This document shows, piece after piece, positions 11,728 through 27,707 of a stretch of DNA of 42,970 nt. Below the pieces are notes generated by a model that saw nothing but the letters and a program-made list of their open reading frames with translations, was not told the DNA's origin and did no database searches. Positions within the stretch are counted from its first letter, which is position 1. Each line of letters opens with the position of its first letter. The translations under genes were made by a program, and so were the position numbers. The DNA is taken from positions 1 to 42,970 of the forward strand of contig JAGVZL010000011.1 of NCBI GenBank assembly GCA_018302505.1, in the 5' to 3' direction. Origin of the DNA: Candidatus Woesearchaeota archaeon (GTDB lineage: Archaea; Nanobdellota; Nanobdellia; SCGC-AAA011-G17; ARS1403).

Positions 11728-12777
11728 TTAAATCAATGACCAAACATGGTTAGGAGTACAAACCTCAATTTTCTTGCCAATTATCTTAACTTTTTTACCT
11801 TCAAGTCTCTTTAAGTGATATCTAATTGTACTACGATGCTTCTTTGTATCTTTTGATATTTCATTTATAGTTTTAGGATTATTTTTTAAAGAAGAAAATA
11901 TTTCTTTTTTAGTTTTGTCTCCATCAAATGCATCTCTTGTAAAAGAACTTAATGCTTCTTCTAATTTTATTCTTTTTCTTTTAATAATAAATCCTATATA
12001 TTTATTATATAGGTTAAGATCTTTCCTACTTATAATTCTCAATAAGAACATTCCGGTAGATTTATCTCTGCCATATTGTTTAATACACGAATTAATACCA
12101 ATTCTACCTAATAAACTTTTCAAAGTTAAGACACTTCTCCCATACATCCTTAAATCGATCCTTTTTTTATTCCACTTCTTATCATATACCATACAACCTT
12201 CAGAATCGAAAATACCTTTCAAAAAAGAAACAATAATCTCCTTTCTGTTAGATTTTAAAATTCTATTAGGAACATTCCAGGAATAAGTTCTTGTATCAAT
12301 CTTATTTGCTAAAAACTCTACTATTTGTACCGAACCAAGTCTTACAACATATTGATCTTTTTTAGTTTCAATCCAGTTATCATATTTAGATTTGTGTTTG
12401 TAGCCATTAACTTTTCTTACATTCATTGTAGGATTTAAACCAGACCATTTCTTTAAAACATTAGAAAAGTTTAAAGCAAAGTCTTTATCCGAAACATTAA
12501 TTCCTATCCTACCTCCTTTCTTATCAATATGTCCATCCCCTATTAATACACCATAAATATAAGCTAACTCTTTAGACAATTTTTTTGATTTCTCAGGAAG
12601 CTTTCTTTGTCTATTTTTCATTGAGACATAATAGGGTTTAACATTTGTATTTGCCCAATACCAAATACTAGTAGGATTAACACCTGTTATCTCTGATATC
12701 TTATTTTGACTTAATCCTTTCTTTTTCAATTCCAACACTTTGTTATAATCTTCCATAGTATATACTTTCTTAATCAT
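11728..12777 (-). CDS. Free-standing LAGLIDADG homing-endonuclease-like protein flanked by N- and C-terminal HTH/wHTH domains
   Basis: It has two LAGLIDADG motifs, LAYIYGVLIGDGHI and IVSFLKGIFDSEGCM. The N-terminal HTH is KKGLSQNKISEITGVNPTSIWYW. The C-terminal wHTH is TINEISKDTKKHRSTIRYHLKRLEG. No intein splicing blocks are present. Confidence 0.7.
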   Translation of the reverse strand: MIKKVYTMEDYNKVLELKKKGLSQNKISEITGVNPTSIWYWANTNVKPYYVSMKNRQRKLPEKSKKLSKELAYIYGVLIGDGHIDKKGGRIGINVSDKDFALNFSNVLKKWSGLNPTMNVRKVNGYKHKSKYDNWIETKKDQYVVRLGSVQIVEFLANKIDTRTYSWNVPNRILKSNRKEIIVSFLKGIFDSEGCMVYDKKWNKKRIDLRMYGRSVLTLKSLLGRIGINSCIKQYGRDKSTGMFLLRIISRKDLNLYNKYIGFIIKRKRIKLEEALSSFTRDAFDGDKTKKEIFSSLKNNPKTINEISKDTKKHRSTIRYHLKRLEGKKVKIIGKKIEVCTPNHVWSLI

Positions 12778-13855: not shown

Positions 13856-14422
13856 TTAGAAATCTCTAACATTTAAACCAGCACTAACAGTTAAATTCTT
13901 TAAAGTGCCGTCATAGCCATTGCCGTTAAATTCTCTAAGCCATCTTCCCGGCCCGGTTATTCCAACTCTACCTGTTAAATAAACAGGGCCGCTAATTTGG
14001 TAGTCTGAAACAACTGAAGCATTCAGAGGAAATCTAGTTTCGTTTACACCACTTCCTTCTAAATGTTCTCTAGTTACTCCTACTTCTCCGCCAAGCAGCC
14101 AGTAATCATCTACTCTTCCTAATAATCTTAAATTAGCACTAGTAACAGAATTTCTAATATTCCCATAGGCACCATAATCAAAATTATCATCAGCAAAAGG
14201 AATAGGATTAAAAGATAAGCCAGCATACCAATCCTTATCAAGACTAGTTTCTAAAGAATATTCTGGAAATGAAAGATTTGAGGAAGGAACATAAGTTGTT
14301 CTAACACCTGCTCCATTTACATTATCCCTTACTCTGCCTAAAAATCCTCCATCGGCATTTGCGGAACCAGCTAAACCCACAATTACAGCTAAAGGTAATA
14401 AAATCTTTCCTAATGATTTCAT
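13856..14422 (-). CDS. Secreted beta-rich protein with an OMP-like C-terminus (paralog of the C-terminal domain of 14422..15771)
   Basis: The signal peptide is MKSLGKILLPLAVIVGLAGSANA. It shares NLRLLGR and NGNG motifs with the neighbour. It ends LTVSAGLNVRDF. Its ATG overlaps the upstream stop (TAATG). Confidence 0.5.
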   Translation of the reverse strand: MKSLGKILLPLAVIVGLAGSANADGGFLGRVRDNVNGAGVRTTYVPSSNLSFPEYSLETSLDKDWYAGLSFNPIPFADDNFDYGAYGNIRNSVTSANLRLLGRVDDYWLLGGEVGVTREHLEGSGVNETRFPLNASVVSDYQISGPVYLTGRVGITGPGRWLREFNGNGYDGTLKNLTVSAGLNVRDF

Positions 14423-15771
14423 TAGAATCTTACTCCTATTCCGACTCTTGCTTCGCCATAATCTCTTGTAGCATCATTACCATTGCCATTTTCCATAACT
14501 TGTCTTCTCCATTCCCCAACATCCCAGATATCAGCACCAACTTCTCCATAAACTCTGTCAGTTGCAAAATGAGGCACTTGGAATTGGAAATATGGTCCGC
14601 CAGTAATAGACTTCTTACCATCTACATAAGTATGTCCTAAACCAACACCTGCTCTGAAGTCATCATTACCATAAGATAATCTTCCTAATAATCTCAAATT
14701 ATCATTTGATCTGCCAGCTTCAGCACCTAATCCGAAACCATTGTCGAATAATCGATCATAGCTTGCTCCACCATCAAAACTTCCAGTAGATAACTTATAA
14801 GCGGATAATAGGTTTCTTCTAGGAGTTGCTTCTTTATCTTTTGCAGATAATGCTTTCCAAGATTCATAAGTACTTATAAAACTGTCATTAAATCCATCTT
14901 CTCTGTCTTGGCTAATCTTGCCAGCTTCGCCAAATTTATCTACAAACCCAAAATAGTCTAAGATTCCAACAGGGTCACTGTCCTTGTCAAAATCATTTAC
15001 ATTAGCATCAGGGTCTTGAGAATATCTATCTAAAAATAGATTAAAGTCAGCATAGTCAAGCACATTGTCTCCATTTAAGTCCATAGTTGTTAATTCTCTT
15101 ATTGGAACTACAGTAGGAGTAGCATCAGCCTCAACTTTTTGTTCTAATTTTCGACCATAAACTGCATCTTGAATAGCATTACTAAAGTAAACTGCATCTC
15201 CAGGTCTTAATTGTTCAGGTCTTATAGAAACTTCTCTTCCGTTTCTGAAAATCATAACATCATCAACTAAATCAGTGATTTGAGCAGAAGTTAATCTAGT
15301 ATTAGCATTTCTTGCTAAAGCCTCAATTCCACCATGAATAGTATTCCCTCTTTGAACTTTGAAAAAGTCTACTCTACCATCTCTTAAACCATCTATTTCA
15401 TCAAATGAATAATTAGGATTATAAGTCCAGGTGACTTTAGGTGATTGATTAACTATAGCAGGAGCTGTAACAACTGTTTCCGGAACGATTGGCTTTTCCT
15501 CAGCCGTTGGTTCGCTTACTAAAGAGAAGGGTTCCATTGGAATTTCTCCAAACACTGAAATAGGTTCTTCTTCTAAATTAGGAAGATCAATTCCTGGTAA
15601 GGAGCTTTCTAATTCTGGCAAGTATGAGTTTCTTGGACCAACTACTCCACTTCCTGATTCTTCTCTTTCTTTTCTTAAAATTTCTTCATCTGAATTACCG
15701 CCGCAACTAGCACTGCCTAAAGCAGCAATTGCAGCTAACGGCAAAATTAATTTTCTGTATAAACTTCTCAT
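14422..15771 (-). CDS. Lipoprotein with dockerin-like Ca-binding repeats and a C-terminal OMP-like beta-rich domain
   Basis: The lipobox is LGSASC. The dockerin-like pair is DLNGDNVLDYADFNLFLDRY / DFDKDSDPVGILDYFGFVDKF (nt ~14926-15081). The C-terminus is NLRLLGRLSYGNDDFRAGVGLGH...YGEARVGIGVRF. Confidence 0.5.
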   Translation of the reverse strand: MRSLYRKLILPLAAIAALGSASCGGNSDEEILRKEREESGSGVVGPRNSYLPELESSLPGIDLPNLEEEPISVFGEIPMEPFSLVSEPTAEEKPIVPETVVTAPAIVNQSPKVTWTYNPNYSFDEIDGLRDGRVDFFKVQRGNTIHGGIEALARNANTRLTSAQITDLVDDVMIFRNGREVSIRPEQLRPGDAVYFSNAIQDAVYGRKLEQKVEADATPTVVPIRELTTMDLNGDNVLDYADFNLFLDRYSQDPDANVNDFDKDSDPVGILDYFGFVDKFGEAGKISQDREDGFNDSFISTYESWKALSAKDKEATPRRNLLSAYKLSTGSFDGGASYDRLFDNGFGLGAEAGRSNDNLRLLGRLSYGNDDFRAGVGLGHTYVDGKKSITGGPYFQFQVPHFATDRVYGEVGADIWDVGEWRRQVMENGNGNDATRDYGEARVGIGVRF

Positions 15772-15912
15772 TTTTATTTACCTCATAAATATTATTTTTA
15801 TCATTCTATAGTAACAAAAACCCTTTATAAATCTTTCGTTTTGTTTTTCCTAATAATTAAACTAATCTTAGAAAACATTTATATAGAAAAACTATCTATT
15901 TCTATTAAATAA

Positions 15913-15918
15913 AGAGGT
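15913..15918 (+). promoter_or_regulatory. Shine-Dalgarno site
   Basis: AGAGGT lies 7 nt before the ATG at 15926. Confidence 0.4.
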
Positions 15919-15925
15919 TATATGA

Positions 15926-18454
15926 ATGAATAAAAAGCTTTTCTCTGTAGTTTTAATTATATCATCATTATTTTTAATCCCTTTAGTTCAAGCGGGTCCG
16001 ATTTTTGATCTTTTTAGCCGGGTAATACAGACAAACACAATATCTAATTTATATAATAATTATCAAGAATTTATAGAATTCTTTATTTATATGGTTATTT
16101 TTATTTCTTTAATTATTGGCGTATTCAAAGATAGGTTCGAAAAAAAACAAACAAAAGCAATAGCAATTGCATTGGGGACTGCATTATCTATATCTTTAGT
16201 TAATTTTATGCCCGGACTTATTGGAAAATTAGGTCCGATAGCTTTCTTTATTTTTGTAGCCTTATTTTGGTTCTTAATCTTTGCTTCTCTCAAAAAAGGA
16301 TTGGAAAGCAGTTTGTTGTCAATGGCATTGGCATACATCTTTGCTTTCTTAACTTTTGTTTTTCTAGATCATGATAAAAAGGTGCAAAATTTTCTGAAAA
16401 GAACAGAAGTTGGAGAATTTCTTTTAGGTTCATCAACAGAATTATTTATTCTAGCATTGTTCATAGCATTAATCGCTCTTTTTTGGTGGTTAATTAAAAA
16501 GTTTGGTGGATGGACCCCTTCAAGTGGAGGAGCACCATCAGGAGGAGGGACGCCAACAAGGATATCTACTCCCACAACAACAGTTTCAACAGGCGGAGGA
16601 AGTGGCGGAGGAAGTCCATCATTCTGGAAAGATAGAAAATGGTGGGGTGGAAAAAAATCCTCGCATCCAAGTAAAGTTTCAAAAAATTTAAAGAACGCTT
16701 TAAAAGCTGATGAACTGGAAGTCAACCAAATAGAAGATGCTATTGGTTTATTAAAAGATTTAAAGAAAGCGGAAGACAGACTTTCTGAGGAAGAAAAATC
16801 CGCAGTATTATCAAAAATTAATGATTATCTAACAAGAATTATACAAGCTGATCCAACAGAAAGCATAGAAAATTTAGTCAATGAAAGATTGCAGGAAATA
16901 GACCAGCTTAGAAAATTCTTAAATCCAACTACCCCAAGAATAAACGACATTCCACTTTCAAAAGTAGTTTCAAGTCTGGATAGTAATAGATATATATCTG
17001 AAAGCACAAAAAATGAGTTAAAAACATTAATTGCTGAAATGGATGGCAAGGATAGAAAATTATCCAATTATGCAAGGACATTATCCACTTTTAAAAGAGT
17101 TTATGATACAAGAGGTCAGCAATTCCGCAGGTTGGCAGAACAAATAATGGTCAATATTAATACCGGCCAGACACAGGGTTTACCTAAAGATTTAGGAAAT
17201 CTATTGGCACTTAAAAAACATTTAGCAGAAACAGATGAAAGGATTAGTAGGGTGCTAGAAGATCCAGAATTTGTTTATGCAATTGAAGATGTAAAAAATA
17301 TTTATGGGCCGCCAGAAGGAATCGAAGACCGCACACAAGAGCATATTAATATTCACAATATTATAAGAAGTGCATTAGGAGAGAGCTACGTAAATAAATT
17401 TAATACCTATCTTCATGGATTTATGGAAAGTTTTGAAGGAGAAAAAACTTATCAAAATTTTTTGAGATGGTTGGCTAGTAAAAATATTAAGGAAGTTGAA
17501 CCTTTCTTTGGTATCCCATTAGAAGATTTTGAAAACATGTTTAATGCTAGAATTAGTGGAAATAGGAGTGAACCACAAGAAGGCCAACGATTCCCACCAG
17601 CAGAACATGATACTCAAAGAATTGAAAGAAGAGATCCTAAAGAGTTATTTAGAAAAGCAAAAGAATATGGGAATAAAATAGGTAAGGCTTGGGGCATTGA
17701 AAAATTGAGATATAGAGATTTTATTTTTAATTTAACCCAAGAAATGGGTATAAATTCCTATGAAGACTTGTTAAGAATTTATCAAATAGATGATGAATCT
17801 TTGAAAAGAATCTTTGAAAGAGCAACAGGTGTTGTTCCAGAAGAATTTGAAGAGTTAGGAGGAAATAGAAGCAGAGTAGGTGAAGCAGAAAGAAGAAAAC
17901 TAGAAGAATCTCTCATAGAATTATTAGATGCCTTAAAAAGAAATGAACCAAATAGACAATCCACCATTAATTTATTAAGGGCCATAAAGAATTCTGCAGA
18001 TTCTATATATGGTTTAATAGATGACAGAAACAGAGGGGATTATGAAAGGTTTGTACAATTAATTAAGAAATCAGAAAAAAGTCTAATGTCAGGAACACAG
18101 GAATGGGAAGAAGCTGTACTAAGGGACGCGGAGGAGGCAGAATCTCTTGCTAATAAGATTTTTGCGTCATTAAATTTACATTCAAGAGAACAAGAAGAAC
18201 CAAAAGATGAAAATTTAGAAGACAAACAAATAGGACTAGAAAAAAGACTCGAAAGTTTAAGGCATTACTTAAATGAAATATCAGATAAAATTCCCGCTTC
18301 GGAAAGAGGAAATCGTTCTTATCTACTTAAATTAATGAGAGACATAAGTCCGGTATTATCAATAAAAAGCTCAAAGAATCTAAGAGAAGCAGAAAGTATG
18401 ATTCAAGAAGCAGAATCAATAATTGAAAGATGGATTGAAAAATACAGTAATTAA
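15926..18454 (+). CDS. Large membrane protein: signal peptide, about 5 TM segments, Gly/Ser/Pro/Thr linker, ~600-aa charged coiled-coil region
   Basis: The signal peptide is MNKKLFSVVLIISSLFLIPLVQA, followed by TM segments up to ~aa 190. The linker is SSGGAPSGGGTPTRISTPTTTVSTGGGSGGGSP. The rest is E/K/R-rich helical sequence with no recognisable catalytic motif. Confidence 0.5.
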   Translation: MNKKLFSVVLIISSLFLIPLVQAGPIFDLFSRVIQTNTISNLYNNYQEFIEFFIYMVIFISLIIGVFKDRFEKKQTKAIAIALGTALSISLVNFMPGLIGKLGPIAFFIFVALFWFLIFASLKKGLESSLLSMALAYIFAFLTFVFLDHDKKVQNFLKRTEVGEFLLGSSTELFILALFIALIALFWWLIKKFGGWTPSSGGAPSGGGTPTRISTPTTTVSTGGGSGGGSPSFWKDRKWWGGKKSSHPSKVSKNLKNALKADELEVNQIEDAIGLLKDLKKAEDRLSEEEKSAVLSKINDYLTRIIQADPTESIENLVNERLQEIDQLRKFLNPTTPRINDIPLSKVVSSLDSNRYISESTKNELKTLIAEMDGKDRKLSNYARTLSTFKRVYDTRGQQFRRLAEQIMVNINTGQTQGLPKDLGNLLALKKHLAETDERISRVLEDPEFVYAIEDVKNIYGPPEGIEDRTQEHINIHNIIRSALGESYVNKFNTYLHGFMESFEGEKTYQNFLRWLASKNIKEVEPFFGIPLEDFENMFNARISGNRSEPQEGQRFPPAEHDTQRIERRDPKELFRKAKEYGNKIGKAWGIEKLRYRDFIFNLTQEMGINSYEDLLRIYQIDDESLKRIFERATGVVPEEFEELGGNRSRVGEAERRKLEESLIELLDALKRNEPNRQSTINLLRAIKNSADSIYGLIDDRNRGDYERFVQLIKKSEKSLMSGTQEWEEAVLRDAEEAESLANKIFASLNLHSREQEEPKDENLEDKQIGLEKRLESLRHYLNEISDKIPASERGNRSYLLKLMRDISPVLSIKSSKNLREAESMIQEAESIIERWIEKYSN

Positions 18455-18494
18455 TAAATAATTTATTACTTTCAAGTAACTACAAATCGTAAGA

Positions 18495-18502
18495 TTTATA
18501 AA
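18495..18502 (+). promoter_or_regulatory. TATA-like box
   Basis: TTTATAAA is centred ~26 nt upstream of the ATG at 18525. The extended AGATTTATAAAGGG also occurs in reverse complement upstream of the 14422..15771 gene (about 15822-15835). Confidence 0.4.
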
Positions 18503-18524
18503 GGGTAATTTTCTATTTCTAAGT

Positions 18525-19001
18525 ATGAAAAGTTATGATTTGGAAAGGAGTATCGGAAGAGATTTAACTATTTTAGCAACAGCAGGATTATATTCTTTAA
18601 GTGCCATTGGGTGCGGGAATGGTCCTGAAGAAAGAGGAGATTTATGGTTTGATGAATCTATCGATGGGGTAAGAGTTGCATATTTTAATGATCCTGATAG
18701 GATGGAAATATATGGACCAAAAGGAGACTTAGTTGAAATCATAGAAGATGATGGCAACGACGAAGTTGGTGACGATTCAGATGATAGATACACCATTTTC
18801 TTAAAAGATGGCAGGTCAAGGACATATGCAGAAAATTATTTTATTGACGAAAGAGGCATTGAATTTAAAGAAGGAGAAGATGCTATCGCAAACAATCTAG
18901 TACAATATTCAAGAGGCGTACTTAAAACAGTAACAGGAAAATATAGAGGATTAAAATCAAAAATATCTAGTATATTAACAAGAAAGTGCACCACTAAATA
19001 A
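18525..19001 (+). CDS. Small acidic putative lipoprotein
   Basis: It has a hydrophobic stretch LTILATAGLYSLSAIGCGNG with a lipobox-like AIGC. Its stop codon lies inside the duplicated fen 3'-end fragment. Confidence 0.45.
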   Translation: MKSYDLERSIGRDLTILATAGLYSLSAIGCGNGPEERGDLWFDESIDGVRVAYFNDPDRMEIYGPKGDLVEIIEDDGNDEVGDDSDDRYTIFLKDGRSRTYAENYFIDERGIEFKEGEDAIANNLVQYSRGVLKTVTGKYRGLKSKISSILTRKCTTK

Positions 19002-19059: not shown

Positions 19060-20370
19060 TTATTCTAACAGCCATTTCCAAAGAGGAATAAACTTAATAT
19101 TTTTATTCTCAACTTTTTCTTCTTTTTCATAATTTTCATTTAGAACAATTAGATTATTACATCTTAATTCTTTACTACATTTCAATAAGGCTTTCAACTC
19201 TCTTTCTTTAGTTTTAATATCCTCCAAATTATAACAAACTTGAATTAGTTGCTTTACCTTTAAACCTTCTTTCAAAACAAAATCAACTTCCTCATGCTTA
19301 ATATTTTTCCAATAATACATTTCAATATTAGCATTTTCCATTATCTCTTTCTTTAATTCAATTGCAACAATATTTTCATACAGATTTCCAATATTAGAGC
19401 TGAATTTAAATCCAATAGCATTAGACAAACCAGTATCAATAGAATAAACTTTCCTTGGTGATTTTTCTTGTTCCTTAATTTTAAAAGAAAAAGATTTTAT
19501 AAAAAAGAGTAGATTATTTTTTTCAAAATAAGAAGAAAATTTTTCTATTGTATCTGTACTCAATTCTAGATATTTTTTCAAAGAGTTAAAAGTAATAAGA
19601 TTGGAAATATTTGTTAAATAGAATTTAGCCAAAGCTCTTAGTTTTTCTCCTTCTCTAATCTTATATCTTTTTTCTATATCTTCTGTTAAAATATCATCAA
19701 AATAAGTTAACAGTAAAATTTTTTTTTCTTCGTTTAAAACAATTTCAGGAAATCCTCCAAATTCTAAATATTCTTTTAATAATTTTTTAATTTCTAATTT
19801 TTTTGACACTAAATCTAATTTATTTTTTATTTCTAATCCTTTAAAACAAATAAATTCTTTAAAACTTAATGGAAACACGTTTATATCTAAGTGTCTGCCG
19901 GTTAAGACAGTAGCTAATTCTCCAGACATTAATTCAGAAGAAGATCCAGACACAATTATTTTTGCTTTATTTAATTCATGCATGGTCCTTGCCCACTTTT
20001 CCCATTTAGGTATTTTATGGATTTCATCTAAAAAAATATAAGGTTTGTCCTTAGGATTTAAATTTTCCACATAAGTTTCATAAATCTTATCTAAGAGATC
20101 TAAATTAAATTTGGTAAATCTTCCATCTTCAAAGTTTATTATTAAAATACTGTTTTTTTCTATCTTTCCAGCTATTAATTTTTTTGCTAATTGTCTCATT
20201 AAATAAGATTTTCCAGATCTTCTAACGCCTATGAAAGAAAGGATAACATTGGGCTTAAGAAATTTCAAAGCCGATTTAAGATATTCTTCTCTTTCATAAC
20301 CAGACTTTAATTCTTTTCTCCAGAGATTCCAATCTTCCAAAATTTCCAGTATTTGATTTTTGTCTATCAT
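19060..20370 (-). CDS. AAA+ ATPase of the COG1373 type (AAA_14 plus DUF4143-like C-terminal domain)
   Basis: Walker A is GVRRSGKSYLMRQL and Walker B is IFLDEIHKIPKWEKW, followed by IIVSGSSSELMSGELATVLTGRHLDINVFPLSFKEF. Hand-counted GC is about 18%. Confidence 0.8.
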   Translation of the reverse strand: MIDKNQILEILEDWNLWRKELKSGYEREEYLKSALKFLKPNVILSFIGVRRSGKSYLMRQLAKKLIAGKIEKNSILIINFEDGRFTKFNLDLLDKIYETYVENLNPKDKPYIFLDEIHKIPKWEKWARTMHELNKAKIIVSGSSSELMSGELATVLTGRHLDINVFPLSFKEFICFKGLEIKNKLDLVSKKLEIKKLLKEYLEFGGFPEIVLNEEKKILLLTYFDDILTEDIEKRYKIREGEKLRALAKFYLTNISNLITFNSLKKYLELSTDTIEKFSSYFEKNNLLFFIKSFSFKIKEQEKSPRKVYSIDTGLSNAIGFKFSSNIGNLYENIVAIELKKEIMENANIEMYYWKNIKHEEVDFVLKEGLKVKQLIQVCYNLEDIKTKERELKALLKCSKELRCNNLIVLNENYEKEEKVENKNIKFIPLWKWLLE

Positions 20371-20421: not shown

Positions 20422-20490
20422 CTATTTAATAAATTCTCCCAAACCTTTCTGACCTTTATTTTTATCTTTTTTCTTTAATTTATCTAAAAT
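20422..20490. repeat. Direct repeat copy 2 (69 nt): the functional 3' end of fen
   Basis: See copy 1. The offset between the copies is 1431 nt. Confidence 0.9.
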
Positions 20491-21438
20491 ATTCTGAACT
20501 CTTTCCTCTCCAAACTCATGTCTTTCAACTAAGATCTCTTTTACTTTACCTTCATCAACATCGCTCCATTTTAATTGGTATTCTTTCATTACAGGCATCG
20601 ACTTAAAAATAGCATAAACTTTCTTCCAGTTGAATTCAGCTTTAACTTCTTTAAATAAAGTATCAAAATTATTAAATTGTTTAACTAAATTCAAAGCTTT
20701 CTTAGGACCAATTCCAACAACACCCTTAGGATTATAATCAGTTCCAGTTAAAATTCCCATCACAATTAACTTATCCCTGTCAACTCCTAAATGATTTAAA
20801 ACATCATGCAGCTCAATTATCTGAGGCTGGATATACACATAACCTTTCCCGGCTTTTCTAGTCTGAGATAAAGTTAAATTAGGTATTAATCTCGGACAGC
20901 CATGCAATAAACAATCCATGTCTGAACTAGCTGCAAAATCTACATCTCCCTTCTCACATAAGAAACTAATTTGTGCATCACTTTCTTGTGGGGCCTGTAT
21001 AACTGGAATTCCCATAGCTTTCAATAGTTCTTTAGTTTCTTTAGTCATATCATTATTCAAATAAGTAACCTGTTTAGAATATTTACCCATAGATTCTTCA
21101 TCATCCTCTTCTTTGGCAATTTCATATTTTTCATATGCTTTTTCCTTTCTCTCTCTCCTCTTTCTCTGAGTTTCATATTTTAATGAAGGCGGTTTGCCAT
21201 CAAAACACACACACGGAAGTATTCCTTTCTGCATTAAGTTTGATATCCTATAGAATGTACCTGAAAGATGCGAAGTTACATTTCCATTAGAATCCATCAA
21301 AGGGGTCCCATCACGTTGGCGAATAGAGCTAAGGAATTGGTACAACATATTAGATGCATCTATTGCAATCCTTTTTCCTTTTAAATCTTCCCAAGAAATA
21401 ATCTTTACGGGAAGTATACCTGGTAATTTAACACCCAT
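20422..21438 (-). CDS. fen: Flap endonuclease 1
   Basis: The sequence reads MGVKLPGIL...GKRIAIDASNMLYQFLSSIRQRDGTPLMDSNGNVTSHLSGTFYR...CFDGKPP and GIGPKKAL, with a C-terminal PIP-like QKGLGEFI. Confidence 0.9.
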   Translation of the reverse strand: MGVKLPGILPVKIISWEDLKGKRIAIDASNMLYQFLSSIRQRDGTPLMDSNGNVTSHLSGTFYRISNLMQKGILPCVCFDGKPPSLKYETQRKRRERKEKAYEKYEIAKEEDDEESMGKYSKQVTYLNNDMTKETKELLKAMGIPVIQAPQESDAQISFLCEKGDVDFAASSDMDCLLHGCPRLIPNLTLSQTRKAGKGYVYIQPQIIELHDVLNHLGVDRDKLIVMGILTGTDYNPKGVVGIGPKKALNLVKQFNNFDTLFKEVKAEFNWKKVYAIFKSMPVMKEYQLKWSDVDEGKVKEILVERHEFGEERVQNILDKLKKKDKNKGQKGLGEFIK

Positions 21439-21440
21439 CC

Positions 21441-21611
21441 TTAGTCGGTTGGTAATTTTATTTTTACTGATTTGTCAGTATAAACTATAAAAAAACCATT
21501 TCCCTCCTTCACAAATAATGTATCATTTTCTTTTATATTTAGGTTTTTTCTAATCTCTTCAGGGATAGTTATCCTTCCACGTTCATCAGCTTTTATAGTA
21601 GTTAGTGACAT
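21441..21611 (-). CDS. AbrB/SpoVT-family small DNA-binding protein (MazE-like), not in the ORF track (56 aa)
   Basis: The ORF reads MSLTTIKADERGRITIPEEIRKNLNIKENDTLFVKEGNGFFIVYTDKSVKIKLPTD, with the classic RGRITIPxEIRxxLxIxxGD pattern. Its stop is 2 nt before the fen ATG. Confidence 0.65.
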   Translation of the reverse strand: MSLTTIKADERGRITIPEEIRKNLNIKENDTLFVKEGNGFFIVYTDKSVKIKLPTD

Positions 21612-21634
21612 ATCTATATTCTAATATGGAAAAG

Positions 21635-21642
21635 TTTATATA
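21635..21642. promoter_or_regulatory. Shared TATA-like box midway between divergent genes
   Basis: TTTATATA is centred at 21638.5. That is 27 nt from the abrB-like ATG (21611) and 29 nt from the ATG at 21668. Confidence 0.4.
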
Positions 21643-21667
21643 CCTTTTTATCCCTTAAAAGGGTATA

Positions 21668-23146
21668 ATGGGTAAGATTAAATTAAATAAAAGGTCGAGT
21701 TTAACATTTAAGAAATTAAATAAGTTATATCAAAAAGTAAAACAAGAGACTAACAACTTTAAGGAATTTAAACAAGAATTAATAATAAAAAACCCAGAGT
21801 CTGTAAGACTATTTAGAATAATGATTGGAAAGGGGTTGGTAGAATTTTCTAGACTTCTTAATAAGTCAGCTTCCACAATTCAATCTTTAGAAGAAAAAAG
21901 ATGGAATATAAGAATACAAACAGCTAAAAAATATATTGATATTATAAAAAATTTAAATAAAAAATATATTTTTTCAAGTATTCCCTATGAAACAATTAAA
22001 TATAACTATGAAAATTTTTATACAAGCAGATTTTTTTCTCGTATTTCAAAGAGAGTTCCCTATGAAAAACGTGTAAGAAAAGGAAAAATTGGAGGGAAAG
22101 CGACTTTAAAGAAGTACGGAAGAAATTATTTTGTTAATTTAGCAAAAAAGGGTGCTAGCCTAGGTGGAATTGCAGTTAGCAAAAAATATCCACATGAGCA
22201 CTATCAAAAAATAGGGAAGATGACAGGAGAAATTCATGGTAGAGAAAAATTAAGTGAATGGGGCAAAAGAGGAGGAATAACAACAGCATCTAAACAAAAA
22301 TTAACTGAGCAAGAAGAATTAATCAAAAAAAGATTAGATAAAAACAAAATCAAAAATATAACCCATCATAAAGTAGAAGGACATAATAAATATTACGTTG
22401 TGGATTTTCTGGTTAAACACAATAATTTAGATATTTATATAGAAGCTACAGCAGTACATGGAAAAAAATCTAGCTCATATCCTTATTCAAAATCTCTTGA
22501 TTTAATAAAGAGAATCCAATCAATCAGATTAAAAAATAATAAATGCAAATTCCTATGTATAATTAGTTCAAAATTTTCAGTAGAAGGCATGATAAAACTT
22601 TCCCAATATGCAGATTGTGTTTTATTAGATAATCATCTTAATAAACTACCATTCATAATTAATAAAATAAATCACAAAACTTATTTAAAGAATATTACAA
22701 AAATTGGACTTAATAGTATATTAAAAAGAAAAATAATGTTCAAAAATGGAGGAATAGCTACTAAAGATTTGAATATAAATAAAAGTGAAACTAAAGTAAT
22801 AAACTTTCTAAATAGAAACAAAATCAAATTTTCAACTCAATCTATTTTAGAAAGTAAATTCGGCACCATTTCTATTGTAGATTTTATCTTAACTTCTACT
22901 AGAGATCTAAAATTAATTATAGAAGTAACTAGCATAAATGGAAAAAGTAAAAAAGCACTTCCCAGAACAATTAATAAAATGGAATCAAGATTATCCATGT
23001 TAAAAGAGTTTTATATTAAAGAAGCAAATCTTGTAGGCCTAATAGATAATGTTAGTCAAAAAGAAATTAATAAATATAACCCAAAGTTTAAACTAATTAG
23101 TATGAACAATTTCATATCAAACATTAAAAATATTTATTCAAATTAA
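21668..23146 (+). CDS. HTH protein with basic KGG-like repeats and two tandem Vsr/DUF559-like (PD-(D/E)XK-fold) endonuclease modules
   Basis: The XRE-like HTH is LVEFSRLLNKSASTIQSLEEKRWN. The repeats are RKGKIGGKATLKKYGRNYF, AKKGASLGGIAVSKKY and SEWGKRGGITTASKQ. The two nuclease-like modules are YYVVDFLVKHNNLDIYIEATAVHGK and ISIVDFILTSTRDLKLIIEVTSINGK. GC is ~13-20% in sampled stretches. Confidence 0.45.
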   Translation: MGKIKLNKRSSLTFKKLNKLYQKVKQETNNFKEFKQELIIKNPESVRLFRIMIGKGLVEFSRLLNKSASTIQSLEEKRWNIRIQTAKKYIDIIKNLNKKYIFSSIPYETIKYNYENFYTSRFFSRISKRVPYEKRVRKGKIGGKATLKKYGRNYFVNLAKKGASLGGIAVSKKYPHEHYQKIGKMTGEIHGREKLSEWGKRGGITTASKQKLTEQEELIKKRLDKNKIKNITHHKVEGHNKYYVVDFLVKHNNLDIYIEATAVHGKKSSSYPYSKSLDLIKRIQSIRLKNNKCKFLCIISSKFSVEGMIKLSQYADCVLLDNHLNKLPFIINKINHKTYLKNITKIGLNSILKRKIMFKNGGIATKDLNINKSETKVINFLNRNKIKFSTQSILESKFGTISIVDFILTSTRDLKLIIEVTSINGKSKKALPRTINKMESRLSMLKEFYIKEANLVGLIDNVSQKEINKYNPKFKLISMNNFISNIKNIYSN

Positions 23147-23488
23147 ATGATACAAAAAATACTAACTTTAGACGGATCTAGTAAATTTTTAGAGGTTTTA
23201 GGAGATTCTCCAAGAAATAGAATTCTAGATTTTTTATTAGGGGAAATTAACTATGATTTCACATTAAAAGAAATTGCAAATAAAAGTAATGTAGGTTATG
23301 CAACGATAAAAAGAACTTGGCATTATTTTATTGGAGCAGAATTAGTTAAGAAGACTAGAAAGGTTGGGAAAGCCGTATTTTACACTTATAATACTGAAAG
23401 TAGAGAAGGAAAAGCACTAAGAAAATTTTACTTAGAAATTATTTTTAATGAAGTAGAAAAGGAAATTCCGCAAAAAATTACAGCTTAA
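23147..23488 (+). CDS. Winged-helix transcriptional regulator
   Basis: The sequence is PRNRILDFLLGEINYDFTLKEIANKSNVGYATIKRTWHYFIGAELVKKTRKVGKAVFY. The ATG directly abuts the upstream TAA. Confidence 0.55.
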   Translation: MIQKILTLDGSSKFLEVLGDSPRNRILDFLLGEINYDFTLKEIANKSNVGYATIKRTWHYFIGAELVKKTRKVGKAVFYTYNTESREGKALRKFYLEIIFNEVEKEIPQKITA

Positions 23489-23533
23489 TTACCGATATCT
23501 TTATATTAAACATTAAATTTTTCTAAACTCAAG

Positions 23534-24190
23534 ATGGTGATAAGAACTTTCTCATTTGACCACAAAGGCGGCTTTTATCAATATAGAGTTCATACCGTAA
23601 AATTAAATAACTTTTGTAAAGGAATATTATTTCCATTAAAGAATTATCTAGAGTCCATCTTTAACTCCTGTCCTAATGATTATTTTCAAAAAGGACCTAG
23701 GTCTTCATCTTTAAAATTTAATCTATCCAATATAAACCTGCAAAATGCTCCAAAACATGAATTATGTTTATTAACACATTATGGTTTAGAACAAAATAGT
23801 AATAGATATTCATCCGCACATTCTAAAGTTCAGGTATTTATGTTAGAGCATGATAAAACTTCAATCGCCTGCGAAACTCCAATATGGCTGTTGCCCGAGG
23901 AGTTAGAATTATATAAAGAGGTTTTCAATTCTAAAGAAGTATTAACAGGACATATTGATATATTAAGAATACAGGATAATAAGATTTGGATTTTAGATTA
24001 CAAACCCAATGCGTCAAAAGAAAAATACGCATCAACTCAAGTTTATTTTTATGCTTTAATGTTAAGCAAAAGAACAGGAATTCCTTTGGAATATTTTAGA
24101 TGTGGTTATTTTGATAATTTAAACTGTTATTTATTTAAACCTGAAGATTGTTCTTTGCCTCAATTAAAATCAATACAGGAATTTATTTAG
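23534..24190 (+). CDS. PD-(D/E)XK nuclease, RecB/Cas4-like
   Basis: The motif order is GHIDILRI (D), WILDYKPN (D-x-K), then STQVYFYALML (QxxxY). Three Cys lie near the C-terminus (FRCGYFDNLNCYLFKPEDC). Confidence 0.6.
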   Translation: MVIRTFSFDHKGGFYQYRVHTVKLNNFCKGILFPLKNYLESIFNSCPNDYFQKGPRSSSLKFNLSNINLQNAPKHELCLLTHYGLEQNSNRYSSAHSKVQVFMLEHDKTSIACETPIWLLPEELELYKEVFNSKEVLTGHIDILRIQDNKIWILDYKPNASKEKYASTQVYFYALMLSKRTGIPLEYFRCGYFDNLNCYLFKPEDCSLPQLKSIQEFI

Positions 24191-27100
24191 AAAAACTATT
24201 CAGATCTACTTGGGTACTGCCTTCTAACAATTCATCTAAAGTAATATTAAAGAAAATTAAAACAGCATTAGCAATAGGTTTTATCTGCTTGTCAATATAA
24301 TGTTTATAATCTAATTTATGTTTCTGATTTTGAATAGGTTCAGGTCCGTCTTCAGTTATAACATACTCAATAACACTACCTTTGAAATTTTTAAGTTTTT
24401 TTGCCGCCTTAACATGTTGAGCATTCATAGCATAATCTTCTAAATTCTTTCTTATTTGTTTTCTATAAACTAAATCTTTGTCATGTCTTCCATCTTTTAC
24501 TTCTTCAATTAATTTTTTAATATAACTCTTAACTTCTTTTTTATGGAATAATCTATCTAATAATTCCATCTGGAATTTTTTTGCTAATTCAGTCCAGTCC
24601 CCCCTAATAGCTTCCATCCCAGTTATTTCAATTTTACCTTTAGAATTCAACCCTGCATATCTTTTTTTTGCACCAGTCTCGCTTCCTCTTACTCTAGGCA
24701 TTAAAAACCTGACAAAGCATTTTTCATATTCTAATTCTAGATGATTATTTCTATTATACTCTTTCTTAACATAACTCTCAAAGAATTTATTTAATTTAAT
24801 ATTTAATTCATTTCCAATTTTCTCCGCCTCTTCTAAATTTTCAGCTTTGCTTAAAACAAAAACCGAATCAGTATTGTGAAGTAGAATATTACCACAAGCA
24901 TCCACAAACGTCTTGTTTTTATCCACAGATAAGTCGTATAAATAATCTTCATAATGGATTTCTTCTATATTAGTTTTTATTCTCGAATTATTTTTATTTG
25001 AAGTTGTAATTGTATAATTACTCTTTTCTTTCCTATATCTGATACTATAATTAAATCTAAGCTGGGTTAATAATGTAGATAAATCCGAAGTTAAACCTAG
25101 TGAATTTGTGCAATAAGAAAAATGCTTTAATTTATATTGTTCAGAATATCTCTTATCCTTTGATTTTCTACTTCCATCTCCTTCAATCATTGTATCTAAT
25201 AAAATTTTTTTATACTTTTCATCTACATGGAACATAAAATAAGGAACTCTTTTTCCATTACTATTTTGTCCAGCCAGTGATTTAAAGAAAACAGCAGAAA
25301 GAATATTCATTAGTTGTAGTTTTTGTGTTTTATCAACATAACTAATATTTTTCTCTGTTTCACCATTAAAATATTTTAATTCTCTAATTTTTTTAGTAGA
25401 AACTATGATAGACACATCCACATTATCAAATAATTTATAATAATCTTCCTTTAGAGATTTTAACCAATTTACATTAGAAGAAGAAATTGAAGCACCCAAT
25501 CTAGATTTTGTTGTTTCCGGAGTTGAAGAAGACCCTTCTGCAATGTATGCTCCAACCAATCTGCATAAAGACTCAAATTCTTTTGATTTAATATCAATAA
25601 ATCTTTTTACCCTTACAGATTTTTTTCTATTTGTCCATCCGAACCACACCCATTTATCATCACAATGAGCCTTCGCAGTTTTTATCCTTCCTTTATAAGT
25701 AACTTTATAACTATAATTTTTTAAATATTCATAAATATCAATTTTAACTATTTTAGGTAAGTCTGGGATCTTAACAATTTTGAATAAGGGTCTTTTTTCA
25801 ATCTCCAAGGGCCTTACTTCTTTTAATTTATTATCTTCAAAAATAATTAATGAATGATCTTCTGAGCAGATTGTTTCTCCATATTTTTGATTTACTCTAA
25901 AAACTTTCTTATTTGTCTTATGTCTTATGATTTCATTAAGTTTAGAAAATTCAGGCTCAAGAGTTTCTTTATTTACTGTTAGAGCAAGAACATTCTCTTT
26001 TCTTAAGTCTATTCTTTCTTTTTTACCAATTATAACCTTCTTTGATATAAATTTTTTAAATAACTCTTCCATACTAATTATCAACAATTTTCCATTAACT
26101 ATCAATGTTGTGAACCGATCTTTGGTTATACTATCTGAATAAATAACTTCATAACCCTCCTCTTCAACTTTTTCAGCTGTTAATTTTATCATCTTCTGAC
26201 CAAAATGAGTAATTGCATTAGCAACGTCTAAAGAAAAAAATCTGCAATTAGCATTAGCCAAAACACCAAAAAAACTATTTAATAAAATTTTAATTGCATG
26301 TCTTTGTAATTCATTTTTCTCTTTTTTAGCCTTGTCTCTTGATTTTAATAATCTTTCAACTAAAACACCCATTACTCCATTTTGATTCTTAAAACAGGCT
26401 CCATTAGGTGCTTTAATTAAATTCTTACCATTGCAATTTTCAACATAACTAAGTGGATCAATATTAAATGTTCTCATCAAACTAGGATAAAGGCTTTTGA
26501 AATCTAAAACTAATAAATAATCATAAATCCCAGGTTTAGATTCCATAACATAACCGCCCTTAATTCTCTCCTCTTTTGGAGTATAGTGACCGGAATTAGC
26601 AACATAACCTCTCTTATTCAATTCCCTTAAATACAAAGAATCTAAAGAAGCAATGGAAGCATTTACCCTGTCTAATGGCATCCCTGTTAAGATGCTTCTT
26701 TCAATAGTCATCTCAATTATCTTAGTTTTTTTTAATATCTCTGTAACTAACCTTGCATCATTCAAATTATATTTAGCTAATTTTTTCTTATCTTCTCTAA
26801 ACAGCCTATCAATTTCTTCACCTTTGCCTTCTATATAAGAAATTAATTTACCTTCTTTTAAAATAGATTGAGCAGCATCTTCCAATTTATAACTATCCAA
26901 GTCGACAAAACTCATTCTTAATAACTGAATTCCATCCAAAACAACTCTTCCAGGAAAATCAGCTTTAGAATCCCTAAAAAAATCTTTCTCAATTCTAATT
27001 TTACATGTTTCGTTTGTTCTTCCCAAAACAAAAGAGATTCTATGTTCTTTAAATTTATTTTTCAAATATTCTAAATCAAAATCAATTAAATTCCATCCTG

Positions 27101-27707
27101 TTATAATATCTGGATCCTCTTCTAAAATTATCTTTTTGAATTCTTCCAACATCTCTTCTTCATCCATATCAATTAAAACTTTCTCAAATCCTTCAGAATA
27201 AATTGCAATGCTGTATAATTTTTTACCGTTTGAACTCGTTTCAATATCTACTGAAAATATTTTTAGATTATTAGGAAAATACTCTATTGGTTTTATCTCA
27301 GCGTCCCTGTAAATTCTGTTAATAAAATCACTTGTTTCATAGTCACCATCTATTTCAACACCCATCATTATTTCTTTATCCATTAAATACCGATAAGCAA
27401 ATCTAATATCTGCTTCATAGCATTCAATTCCGTCTTCCTCAAAACTTCTTCTTAAACCAGGAACATCTTTCGGAGTTTCTAGAATAACTCTTGATAATTT
27501 TTCATCATTGAAACTTTTGAAATCACTATTTTCAATCTTAAAATCCCCATTACCAGCTTTTTTAACATCTTTAGTTTTAATATAAAAATAAGGTTCATAG
27601 AAATTCATAACTAAAAAACTCTCTCCATTCTCTAATTTTCCAAACAAAAAAACATAACTTTTCCCATCTATTATCTTATAGCTTGGGTAAAGTATAAAAC
27701 CTTTCAT
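24183..27707 (-). CDS. polB: Family B DNA polymerase containing one intein
   Basis: The exonuclease motifs are FSVDIET, NLIDFDLEYL and YNLNDARL. The polymerase motifs are DFKSLYPSLM, KILLNSFFGV and a split motif C, VIYSD|...|TDSVFV. Confidence 0.9.
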   Translation of the reverse strand: MKGFILYPSYKIIDGKSYVFLFGKLENGESFLVMNFYEPYFYIKTKDVKKAGNGDFKIENSDFKSFNDEKLSRVILETPKDVPGLRRSFEEDGIECYEADIRFAYRYLMDKEIMMGVEIDGDYETSDFINRIYRDAEIKPIEYFPNNLKIFSVDIETSSNGKKLYSIAIYSEGFEKVLIDMDEEEMLEEFKKIILEEDPDIITGWNLIDFDLEYLKNKFKEHRISFVLGRTNETCKIRIEKDFFRDSKADFPGRVVLDGIQLLRMSFVDLDSYKLEDAAQSILKEGKLISYIEGKGEEIDRLFREDKKKLAKYNLNDARLVTEILKKTKIIEMTIERSILTGMPLDRVNASIASLDSLYLRELNKRGYVANSGHYTPKEERIKGGYVMESKPGIYDYLLVLDFKSLYPSLMRTFNIDPLSYVENCNGKNLIKAPNGACFKNQNGVMGVLVERLLKSRDKAKKEKNELQRHAIKILLNSFFGVLANANCRFFSLDVANAITHFGQKMIKLTAEKVEEEGYEVIYSDSITKDRFTTLIVNGKLLIISMEELFKKFISKKVIIGKKERIDLRKENVLALTVNKETLEPEFSKLNEIIRHKTNKKVFRVNQKYGETICSEDHSLIIFEDNKLKEVRPLEIEKRPLFKIVKIPDLPKIVKIDIYEYLKNYSYKVTYKGRIKTAKAHCDDKWVWFGWTNRKKSVRVKRFIDIKSKEFESLCRLVGAYIAEGSSSTPETTKSRLGASISSSNVNWLKSLKEDYYKLFDNVDVSIIVSTKKIRELKYFNGETEKNISYVDKTQKLQLMNILSAVFFKSLAGQNSNGKRVPYFMFHVDEKYKKILLDTMIEGDGSRKSKDKRYSEQYKLKHFSYCTNSLGLTSDLSTLLTQLRFNYSIRYRKEKSNYTITTSNKNNSRIKTNIEEIHYEDYLYDLSVDKNKTFVDACGNILLHNTDSVFVLSKAENLEEAEKIGNELNIKLNKFFESYVKKEYNRNNHLELEYEKCFVRFLMPRVRGSETGAKKRYAGLNSKGKIEITGMEAIRGDWTELAKKFQMELLDRLFHKKEVKSYIKKLIEEVKDGRHDKDLVYRKQIRKNLEDYAMNAQHVKAAKKLKNFKGSVIEYVITEDGPEPIQNQKHKLDYKHYIDKQIKPIANAVLIFFNITLDELLEGSTQVDLNSFSK
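24873..26132 (-). mobile_element. 420-aa intein with LAGLIDADG endonuclease domain in polB motif C (pol-c type site)
   Basis: It starts with Ser (SITKDRF...) after YSD and ends ...FVDACGNILLHN before TDSVFV. Block B is CSEDHSLI. The LAGLIDADG blocks are LVGAYIAEGSS and LLDTMIEGDGS. Excision restores YSDTDS. Confidence 0.85.

Follow-up and report, generated by a model that had tools for sequence, protein, structure and literature searches.

The stretch of DNA analysed here, hereafter the window, is 42,970 nucleotides (nt) long and comes from contig JAGVZL010000011.1 of a Candidatus Woesearchaeota archaeon (assembly GCA_018302505.1). Our subject is a block of three co-directional genes on its plus strand (21668-24190), which we call g1, g2 and g3 and which lie between fen1, a flap endonuclease gene, and the DNA polymerase gene polB. 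An earlier reading of the sequence by a model (hereafter, the original prediction) had drawn these open reading frames (ORFs) of 492, 113 and 218 amino acids (aa), and we confirm their coordinates as well as the placement of the block between two core replication genes; its proposal that the three form one uncharacterised defence or mobile operon is contradicted by synteny. In our analysis, g3 is a vertically inherited core gene of a fen1-g3-polB cluster, has a conserved promoter-like element of its own, and is neither a Cas4 nor a member of a mobile module. The variable part of the locus (21441-23488) consists of g1, g2 and a small AbrB-type gene that the original prediction missed; it is lineage-restricted and is set in the ~80-nt divergent promoter region of fen1 and g3. 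We are highly confident that these two statements hold together.

The genes of the locus are tightly arranged. On the minus strand, fen1 (20422-21438) carries XPG_N (5.5e-21) and XPG_I (2.2e-25) domains and ends in QKGLGEFIK, a canonical PCNA-interacting peptide (PIP) box (pattern used: Q-x-x-[ILM]-x-x-[FY]-[FYLI]). Two nt upstream of it, on the same strand and divergent from g1, lies the gene for a 56-aa AbrB/MazE/SpoVT-type small DNA-binding protein (21441-21611), which matches MazE_antitoxin (1.6e-09), AbrB TIGR01439 (6.3e-10) and a PHROG antitoxin family (1.8e-06). The 56-nt divergent spacer between the AbrB gene and g1 (21612-21667) contains a near-palindromic TATA-like element, GTTTATATACC, which was read from the sequence and is a putative promoter. 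On the plus strand, g1 (21668-23146) encodes a helix-turn-helix (HTH) region, KGG repeats and two nuclease modules, A and B, and its TAA is followed directly by the ATG of g2 (23147-23488), as the original prediction had described. The winged helix that it ascribed to g2 is borne out by matches of an ArsR/Csa3 type (PADLOC PDC-M05A 2.1e-06, Csa3 winged HTH 4.1e-06), with those to SdpR/ArsR being weak. After a gap of 45 nt comes g3 (23534-24190), a RecB-family PD-(D/E)XK nuclease gene that overlaps by 8 nt with the convergent, intein-containing polB (24183-27707, minus strand; DNA_pol_B 9.4e-35, DNA_pol_B_exo1 3.6e-17, Intein_splicing 4.5e-09).

The assignment of g3 to the core replication cluster is based on its conserved synteny together with its own conserved promoter-like motif. 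At least 785 homologs of g3 were found at 50-85% identity, and a scan of one genome per species recovered relatives in 411 species-level DPANN genomes, nearly all of which are labelled Woesearchaeota or Nanoarchaeota. When the proteins of the window were compared by tblastn with the 80 best g3 loci (loci outside the window carry L numbers below), fen1 was located divergently upstream of g3 in 70, with four further contigs too short to judge, and a polB gene was located downstream in 69. The polymerases that follow g3 differ in orientation and identity: polB is convergent and 46-76% identical to that of the window in 36 of the 80 loci, and the ORF at this position is plus-strand and PolB-like, with 24-31% identity, in 33 (L012, L013, L021-L024, L028 and others); two different PolB paralogs thus fill one syntenic slot in different lineages. 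Genes for methionine aminopeptidase and CDC48 usually come next. The gap between fen1 and g3, scored in 71 loci (the 70 mentioned above plus L001), is a spacer of 54-147 nt in 39 of them and contains 0.4-4.2 kb of other genes in 30. The original prediction had named universal conservation at this locus as evidence that would speak against it, and such conservation is what we observed for g3 across the sampled genomes; the variable presence that it proposed to look for in the whole block applies to g1 and g2, with the AbrB gene, but not to g3.

The promoter-like motif of g3, TTACCGATATCTTTATAT, is an 18-nt B recognition element (BRE)/TATA-like sequence (23489-23506) that immediately follows the g2 stop codon; 28 nt separate its end from the g3 ATG. 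In the window's closest relatives in the g3 scan, L004 and L005, both of which lack the insertion, it recurs at equal distance from g3, unaltered in L004 and with two changes in L005. This suggests that g3 has retained its ancestral promoter and that g1 and g2 were placed upstream of it; from its sequence and position, TTACCGATATCTTTATAT would act as the g3 promoter.

Judged from its motifs and predicted fold, g3 is a divergent RecB-family nuclease whose N-terminal half is lineage-specific. The motifs GHID, DYK and QxxxY are invariant among 116 homologs, in which H140, D142, D155, Y156, K157, Q169 and Y173 are kept in 115-116, as are E105, D107 and E114. The protein scores above the Pfam cut-off for PF12705 (PDDEXK_1, 25.0 bits against a cut-off of 22; E=2.1e-05), and its AlphaFold model is confident (pLDDT 93, pTM 0.90). 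In Foldseek searches of the PDB, this model matched AddA (1.6e-4), Exo5 (3.2e-3), RecB (4e-3) and MGME1 (3.9e-2), as well as RecE and the Cas4 structures SSO0001 and Pcal_0546, with probabilities of ~0.5-1.0 for the best chain of each and TM-scores of only ~0.3-0.35; a PDB sequence search with the g3 profile returned nothing relevant. The nuclease domains of AddA/RecB, human Exo5, MGME1 and Dna2 share with g3 the motifs GhhD, DYK and QxxxY. Unlike these RecB-type relatives, g3 is a stand-alone protein of 218 aa, without a helicase partner domain and without an Fe-S cluster.

The RecB side of the RecB/Cas4 assignment in the original prediction therefore stands, because the RecB motifs are invariant, and the Cas4 side does not, because the four Cas4 cysteines are absent. 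Cas4 and solo-Cas4 proteins (COG1468, PF01930) have a RecB-type catalytic core in common with g3, which accordingly shows weak matches to Cas4 models (~1e-5). Cas4 proper is defined by an Fe-S module with four conserved cysteines, pfam12705, the group to which g3 belongs, is set apart from it, and stand-alone Cas4-like genes are common in DPANN genomes (PMC5704561). Among the 116 homologs, conservation is confined to C46 (115) and C190 (113), with C28 present in 99, C198 in 51 and C206 in 46, and no C-x2-C-x5-C pattern was found, so that of the three C-terminal cysteines to which the original prediction pointed, one is conserved. The scores fall below the cut-offs for both Pfam Cas_Cas4 (21.6 bits against 22.7) and TIGR00372 (23.2 against 65). 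Association with CRISPR genes was likewise not observed: the window annotation contains no cas genes, and in the 80 genomes g3 has fen1 and polB for neighbours.

A replication- or repair-coupled role, possibly at PCNA, is suggested for g3 by its synteny, by the divergent promoter region that it shares with fen1 and by its C-terminal tail, and it would be analogous to the roles of Dna2, Exo5 and MGME1, RecB-type nucleases that act on flaps and ends and are themselves tied to replication as g3 is by synteny. The tail, LKSIQEFI, is disordered in the model; its pattern, K-x-[ILV]-x-[DE]-F-x, is a relaxed PIP-like fit that is found in 62 of the 116 homologs, in which the canonical Q is mostly absent. 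By this analogy, g3 may be a compact core replication nuclease of Woesearchaeota and Nanoarchaeota that is co-regulated with Fen1 from the ~80-nt divergent region and processes long flaps or fork intermediates at PCNA, the counterpart of these three enzymes in eukaryotes. Our literature search found no description of the fen1-g3 gene pair.

In contrast to g3, the insertion is rare. A search of 5.8 billion sequence clusters yielded only five close homologs of g1, and of the 80 genomes sampled that have the cluster, 78 or more lack g1, close relatives included. One locus, L002, belongs to the same population as the window (DNA 99.9-100% identical) and contains AbrB, g1 and g2. Its g1 lacks 75 nt in frame, corresponding to window positions ~21993-22067 and to residues 108-132 between the HTH region and the KGG repeats; a 12-nt direct repeat (microhomology) lies at its boundaries, and a deletion allele thus segregates in this population. 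In L001 (g1 57% identical), g1 is divergent from fen1, AbrB and g2 are absent, and g3 lies 2.5 kb further on. L003 (g1 50% identical) has the order fen1 - AbrB - g1 - DUF6364, with an AbrB that is 74% identical to the window's and a conserved AbrB-fen1 arrangement, and L092 (g1 56% identical) has the order g1 - 59-aa ORF - g3 - polB. The site is thus occupied in the window, L001, L002, L003 and L092, and it is empty in L004 (78-nt gap) and L005. The core genes of L004 are 44-79% identical to those of the window, fen1, g3 and polB of L005 are 73-75% identical, and those of L001 are 38-61% identical. Because the closer relatives lack g1 and the more distant L001 has it, the gene must have been lost at least twice or else transferred into this one site. 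The g2 gene accompanies g1 only in the population of the window (L002), and in L014 and L025 a relative of g2 with 35-37% identity lies on the far side of TYW2-fen1.

The gap between fen1 and g3 holds other genes in other genomes, namely IMPase with TrmB, Sua5, NAD(P)HX dehydratase, a T2SSE ATPase and NYN proteins (the last in four genomes), as well as nucleotidyltransferase, LAGLIDADG, methyltransferase and MFS proteins, many of these being housekeeping genes. Apart from the g1 of L001, none of the gap inserts in the 71 scored loci is related to g1. We considered whether this junction is a dedicated defence hotspot or island and rejected the idea, as its contents are miscellaneous and mostly housekeeping; the site is a general synteny breakpoint. 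We also rejected, as an insertion scar, an 18-nt direct repeat that brackets g2 (TTYATATYAAACATTAAA; 23111-23128 and 23500-23517, 16 of 18 positions identical), because its left copy lies inside conserved coding sequence of g1; each copy is located 17-36 nt upstream of an ATG (that of g2 or of g3), and the repeat is probably due to chance or to promoter mimicry. The AbrB gene was examined as a type II antitoxin with a cognate toxin, and this too was rejected, since no MazF, VapC or Doc-type toxin adjoins it and the downstream gene is the housekeeping fen1. The position of AbrB 2 nt upstream of fen1, a flap endonuclease with a PIN-like fold, mimics the VapB-VapC layout.

The base composition provides only weak evidence of foreign origin, the anomaly being mild. 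The block has a GC content of 25.9%, against 30.8% for the whole window, and is the window's lowest-GC 2.5-kb segment (percentile 0.001); the values of 13-20% given in the original prediction are reached only in selected 60-nt samples, 10 of 42 such samples in the block being at or below 20%, compared with 9% window-wide. By gene, the values are 24.6% for g1, 27.2% for g2 and 28.6% for g3, compared with 27.7% for polB and a mean of 31.4% (standard deviation 3.7) over 40 window genes. GC at third codon positions is slightly low in g1 (0.17) and g2 (0.15) and normal in g3 (0.22; background ~0.18-0.25). Since the g1 protein is rich in K, N and I, its GC deficit falls mainly on codon positions 1 and 2.

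Direct family searches with g1 (Pfam, NCBIfam, PHROGs) gave nothing significant, and its anatomy emerges from comparison with its relatives. A profile of the five close homologs (A1), run against 1.84 billion representative proteins, recovered 185 relatives with modular architectures. The XRE-like HTH of the original prediction is supported indirectly: HTH_3 (PF01381) has no Pfam match on g1 itself, but it matches 30 of 54 relatives aligned over the N-terminal region of g1 (best E 3.3e-17), and the homolog P0004 shows a faint match; the region that aligns to the HTH segments of relatives spans residues 10-118 (21695-22021). The KGG-like repeats of the original prediction were recovered as well. 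They are three basic 20-residue repeats of the GsiB/KGG/LEA_5 type (residues 133-212; 22064-22303), which match LEA_5 at E=0.0098, stand-alone GsiB/KGG repeat proteins over residues 130-212, and a plasmid 'general stress protein' (GsiB-like). This region is predicted to be disordered (AlphaFold pLDDT ~30). Within the close family no stretch is better conserved, and in alignment A1 it hardly varies.

The remainder of g1 is folded in the AlphaFold model into two confident modules, A (residues 213-345; 22304-22702) and B (residues 366-492; 22763-23143), each with the order helix, three strands, helix, strand (pLDDT 80-95). Both have the PD-(D/E)XK core, that is, the fold together with acidic residues on helix 1, strand 2 and strand 3, which form E-D-E triads (E216, D246 and E259 in A; E374, D405 and E419 in B) that are invariant in the five close homologs. 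In the 54 relatives, which share 18-30% identity, E216 never varies, and conservation is 90% or higher at L223, D246, F247 and E259. Modules A and B are 29% identical over 118 columns (E=0.016), and repeats can be discerned between them at the DNA level (22335-22378/22809-22852 and 22438-22466/22918-22946); these resemblances mark an old tandem duplication. The lack of a nuclease fold or of catalytic residues, which the original prediction had named as evidence against it, was thus not observed, folds and acidic triads being present, although g1 lacks the canonical lysine, as discussed below.

A profile of 45 nuclease modules (A4) matched, among PDB sequences, T7 endonuclease I (E=1.2e-4 and 4.3e-4; PDB 1M0D, 2PFJ), the best sequence-profile match among solved structures, and I-Bth0305I (3R3P; E=1.1e-3). 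Over ~55 aligned residues, A4 places the E, D and E of the family on E20, D55 and E65 of T7 endonuclease I; with A1, the only PDB match was one of 31 residues to 3R3P (E=0.016). Foldseek returned only PD-(D/E)XK proteins: in the PDB, the restriction-like endonuclease domain of R2 (top), R.BspD6I, AF1548, Can2, Bax1 and XisH, and in BFVD, DUF559, Vsr, endonuclease I and 'restriction enzyme' proteins and a Bacillus phage homing endonuclease. With DUF559/Vsr, g1 shares the motif pattern T-x-x-E ... (V)DF ... h-h-I-E and fold-match probabilities of 0.97-1.0. Unlike Vsr, it lacks the E-x-D-G-x-x-H motif and the Vsr histidines, and no zinc site was identified; the isolated modules have no Pfam DUF559 or Vsr match even at E<=10. 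The double Vsr/DUF559 nuclease of the original prediction is therefore upheld by the AlphaFold model, Foldseek and the A4 profile at the level of fold and motif, and g1 is not a member of the Pfam DUF559, Vsr or EDxHD families. On this evidence, we consider g1 to be probably an active, metal-dependent DNA endonuclease.

The wider family to which g1 belongs is little known. Its commonest architecture is one HTH followed by one nuclease module in ~260 aa (41 of 148 scored); other members have two, three or four HTH domains preceding the module, and about ten share the layout of g1, with HTH, KGG repeats and two modules. A few relatives match RE_XcyI or HSDR_N_2. Named members come from Nanoarchaeota or Woesearchaeota, others from the 0.1-0.22 µm Tara Oceans fraction, and the 90%-identity clusters that were looked up contain 1-4 sequences each; one member is named 'helix-turn-helix transcriptional regulator' by NCBI. 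A JGI metagenome scan with A1 found no relative, and a word-index homology search with A4 returned one protein only; a weak A4 match inside the C-terminal region of polB of L004 was set aside as probably spurious.

The members with two modules recur in the same genomic surroundings. Eight of nine contexts of this subfamily fall within the TYW2-fen1-g3-polB neighbourhood, in four different positions: between fen1 and g3 in the five occupied loci listed above (the short contigs of L003 and L092 show one flank), directly upstream of fen1, overlapping it in one operon, in L089 (39% identity), downstream of g3 in L085/L086 (26%) and downstream of TYW2 in L091 (27%). In the ninth, L090, the family member shares an operon with AP_endonuc_2. 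Four other members were examined, and three of them reside in the rps13-rps4-rps11-rpoD cluster, P0132 and P0179 between rps11 and rpoD and P0137 between rps4 and rps11; P0177 adjoins leuS. The neighbours of the distant members are not homologous to one another and include no conserved partner gene, which indicates that the unit is the single gene. The rps4/rps11 and rps11/rpoD junctions (L084 1015-4432; L094 6621-7789; L087 2676-6378) repeatedly hold accessory genes, among them HTH-nuclease members, a diversity-generating retroelement, and genes for a 75-aa HTH_3 protein and for uncharacterised proteins of 251 and 400 aa.

We tentatively favour the notion that g1 is a free-standing selfish endonuclease of the homing type, which is the least certain part of our interpretation and to which we assign somewhat less than an even chance. 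Its XRE-type HTH would read a DNA site, the basic disordered GsiB/KGG-like repeats would serve as a flexible DNA-contacting linker, and the two modules, each with an E-D-E metal-binding triad, would form a single-chain pseudo-dimer that cuts both strands, a task for which the single-module relatives would need to dimerise. The gene would then persist beside a highly conserved target region, like the Seg and Mob genes of phages and I-Bth0305I-type enzymes, and AbrB and g2 would be small local regulators gained in this lineage. Such a role would account for the rarity and patchiness of g1 and for its recurrence beside the same core genes. We favour it because the HTH-then-nuclease layout resembles the HTH/NUMOD-plus-Vsr-like layout of I-Bth0305I and the logic of phage Seg/Mob genes, because the family adjoins extremely conserved genes in two unrelated clusters, because g1 is rare and patchy with its tiny 90% clusters, because the 75-nt deletion allele segregates in the population, and because the genome is rich in inteins (polB, RFC, eRF1) and contains a free-standing LAGLIDADG gene.

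Among characterised proteins, I-Bth0305I resembles g1 in having N-terminal HTH-type DNA-binding modules followed by a C-terminal Vsr-like PD-(D/E)XK nuclease and in that a double-strand cut takes two nuclease domains, as is predicted for g1. EDxHD homing endonucleases carry a composite E-D-x-H-D catalytic motif (PMC3239194), which g1 lacks, its modules reading IEATAV and IEVTSI without an H or D after the conserved E. Unlike I-Bth0305I, g1 is free-standing in a cellular archaeal chromosome, outside any intron or intein, and it has an XRE-type HTH rather than NUMOD, KGG repeats, and two modules per chain.

Several observations weigh against a homing role or against activity. Relative to fen1, the gene takes several positions (divergent, in one operon, or downstream of g3 or TYW2), which functional linkage predicts equally well; the 57% identity between the g1 of the window and that of L001 also fits vertical descent with two losses; the shared location of the subfamily may reflect shared ancestry; and because DPANN genomes are small, any accessory gene has core neighbours. 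A search for terminal repeats or target-site duplications flanking the insertion found only short, probably chance repeats, and no g1 relatives were found in phage or plasmid records, bar the GsiB-like plasmid match. The Foldseek scores are modest (E 1e-4 to 1e-2; TM normalised to the full-length query ~0.2). Moreover, the residue equivalent to K67 of T7 endonuclease I is a threonine in both modules (T261 in A, T421 in B), and in the 54 relatives it is T in 20, F in 14 and K in 12; because the lysine of (D/E)-x-K is thus replaced, activity would need a lysine from elsewhere, for which the conserved K266/267 and the conserved G-K-S at 425-427 (five to seven residues downstream) might be candidates.

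The main rival, which we consider unlikely, is that g1 is an accessory replication or repair factor or a local regulator of the fen1/g3 cluster: either an HTH-anchored, single-chain, T7-endonuclease-I-like nuclease that acts on branched or damaged DNA together with Fen1, g3 and the AP endonuclease, or a transcription factor encoded divergently from its target genes. T7 endonuclease I, the closest solved relative of the modules, is a junction-resolving enzyme that works as a dimer with two sites, which the tandem modules of g1 could mimic; unlike g1, it possesses K67, is devoid of an HTH and reads the structure of DNA, not its sequence, and a sequence-specific XRE-type HTH would be unusual in a structure-specific nuclease. 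The recurrence of eight of nine contexts near fen1, g3 or TYW2 despite changes in order and orientation is the usual signature of functional linkage; also in favour are the overlap with fen1 in L089 and the operon with AP_endonuc_2 in L090; the identity of g1 between the window and L001 is comparable to that of the flanking core genes (38-61%), and the NCBI name of one member is that of a regulator. These points are countered by the great rarity of g1, which is missing even from close relatives, and by the members in the ribosomal-protein/rpoD cluster, where no repair logic is apparent. A regulator could also be catalytically dead and re-use nuclease folds for DNA binding or oligomerisation. 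The loss of the canonical lysine from both modules, the frequent phenylalanine at this position in relatives, the lack of any Pfam nuclease family above threshold and the HTH as the most recognisable domain of the relatives would suit such a protein, which we nevertheless regard as very unlikely: metal-binding residues that are this well conserved at 18-30% identity are hard to explain without catalysis, and the migration of the lysine is well known in PD-(D/E)XK enzymes.

A role in defence, which we judge to be decidedly improbable, would make g1, possibly with g2 and AbrB as regulators, a solitary restriction-like nuclease, for example a modification-dependent, type IV-like one; such enzymes need no cognate methyltransferase. 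Module B weakly matches the Vsr-like nuclease domain of PvuRts1I (PvuRts1I-like_N, 0.0038) and PADLOC PDC-M24B (9.7e-05), g2 has its weak matches to PDC-M05A and the Csa3 winged helix, some relatives match RE_XcyI and HSDR_N_2, viral structure matches are often annotated 'restriction enzyme', and g1 is rare, patchy and fast-evolving; in addition, a PDC-S01 ATPase gene lies on the other side of fen1, and diversity-generating retroelement cassettes adjoin family members in L085 and L087. However, PADLOC-DB v2 assembled no complete system from g1, g2 and g3, the weak single-protein matches pointing to three different candidate families, so that, as the original prediction held, no named defence system is recognised. 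There is no methyltransferase or other defence gene nearby, the window annotation being free of cas genes, DNA methyltransferases and integrases, as had been stated; family members occur inside ribosomal and replication clusters rather than defence islands; and elsewhere the fen1-g3 gap holds mostly housekeeping genes. A three-gene defence or mobile operon of g1, g2 and g3 with a Cas4-like effector would be in keeping with their common direction, the tight spacing (abutting g1 stop and g2 start; 45 nt between g2 and g3) and the lowest GC content in the window. It is nonetheless extremely unlikely, since at least 78 of 80 loci have g3 but neither g1 nor g2, g3 is in every case linked to fen1/polB, its ancestral promoter-like motif is kept in the 45-nt spacer, g1 homologs occur without g2 (L001, L003, L092), L089-L091 have no g3 on the contig, and the Cas4 cysteines are absent from g3. 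Returning to the selfish homing endonuclease, we hold the composite statement (core g3, an AbrB/g1/g2 insertion, an active endonuclease and a homing role) only provisionally as a whole, a little short of evenly balanced.

For annotation, these results mean that a 'Cas4-like defence gene' in these genomes is to be corrected to a conserved neighbour of fen1 and polB. Should g3 act at the fork together with Fen1 and PolB, a gap in the Okazaki-fragment maturation or fork repair of reduced-genome archaea would be closed; we see in it a RecB-family nuclease of divergent sequence whose link to replication genes is conserved, a link of which we found no description in the literature searched. In g1, the enzyme classes themselves are known, and the novelty lies in the HTH-guided, single-chain, tandem PD-(D/E)XK architecture. 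If its family is one of homing genes, it would represent a rare instance of such genes standing free in the chromosomes of cellular archaea. The family comprises compact, modular, sequence-reading HTH domains followed by a nuclease, and it could yield single-chain site-specific nucleases of programmable length. We give about an even chance that at least one of the two ideas is true, namely, that g3 is a replication nuclease or that the g1 family represents new free-standing homing endonucleases; both proteins provide testable hypotheses, on DPANN replication and on selfish nucleases in cellular archaeal chromosomes. The locus also illustrates how the accessory genes of small genomes are squeezed into the junctions of otherwise rigid core clusters.

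The gene set of the window is otherwise archaeal and housekeeping: it includes RFC subunits, an SSB-like OB-fold protein, a HerA-like ATPase, the TYW2 methyltransferase, fen1, polB with its intein, methionine aminopeptidase, CDC48, L31e, S19e, a class I aminoacyl-tRNA synthetase, eRF1 with a mini-intein, ScpB and FtsY, and the homologs of window genes that bear names derive from metagenome-assembled genomes of Woesearchaeota, Nanoarchaeota or Nanoarchaeia, which marks the window as DPANN DNA. On the far side of fen1, a minus-strand gene (19060-20370; GC 24.6%) encodes a 436-aa AAA_14/DUF4143 ATPase that matches PADLOC PDC-S01 at 5e-115. This gene and the unannotated genes at 13856-19001 form a second variable insertion, because TYW2 directly follows fen1 in L001 and L025; a second AT-rich insertion across fen1 had been foreseen in the original prediction. 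The intein of polB is ~400 aa long (residues ~546-945), the RFC small subunit gene (217-1275, plus strand) carries an intein-splicing remnant, the mini-intein of eRF1 lies in a gene at 38110-39612 (plus strand), and the HerA-like gene of L025 also has an intein. A free-standing protein with LAGLIDADG_3 and HTH_5 domains is encoded at 11728-12777 (minus strand). Between unannotated genes and the SSB-like OB-fold gene, a Bro-N protein (7.6e-13) is encoded at 4321-5160 (plus strand); the Bro-N domain is typical of viruses and mobile elements.

At the end of the window, a 252-aa ORF without a Pfam match (42031-42789, plus strand) is followed by an Rfam RT-16 RNA (42822-42959; 101.6 bits), 11 nt past which the window ends. 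The same cassette in L087 (2676-4727)/L088 consists of a 263-aa ORF, RT-16, a template repeat (TR) and an RVT_1 reverse transcriptase, and it is also found in L085 (3925-4789). In L087/L088, the 3' part of the ORF (4078-4167) and a segment (3694-3777) adjacent to the reverse transcriptase share ~82% identity, and roughly one in two of their mismatches coincides with a template adenine; the cassette looks like a diversity-generating retroelement, with RT-16 separating the target gene from the template repeat. An R2-like retroelement reading of g1 was rejected, as the reverse transcriptase near P0137 belongs to such a cassette, with its pair of template and variable repeats (TR/VR). In both L087 and L085, the retroelement cassette is divergent from the g1-family genes.

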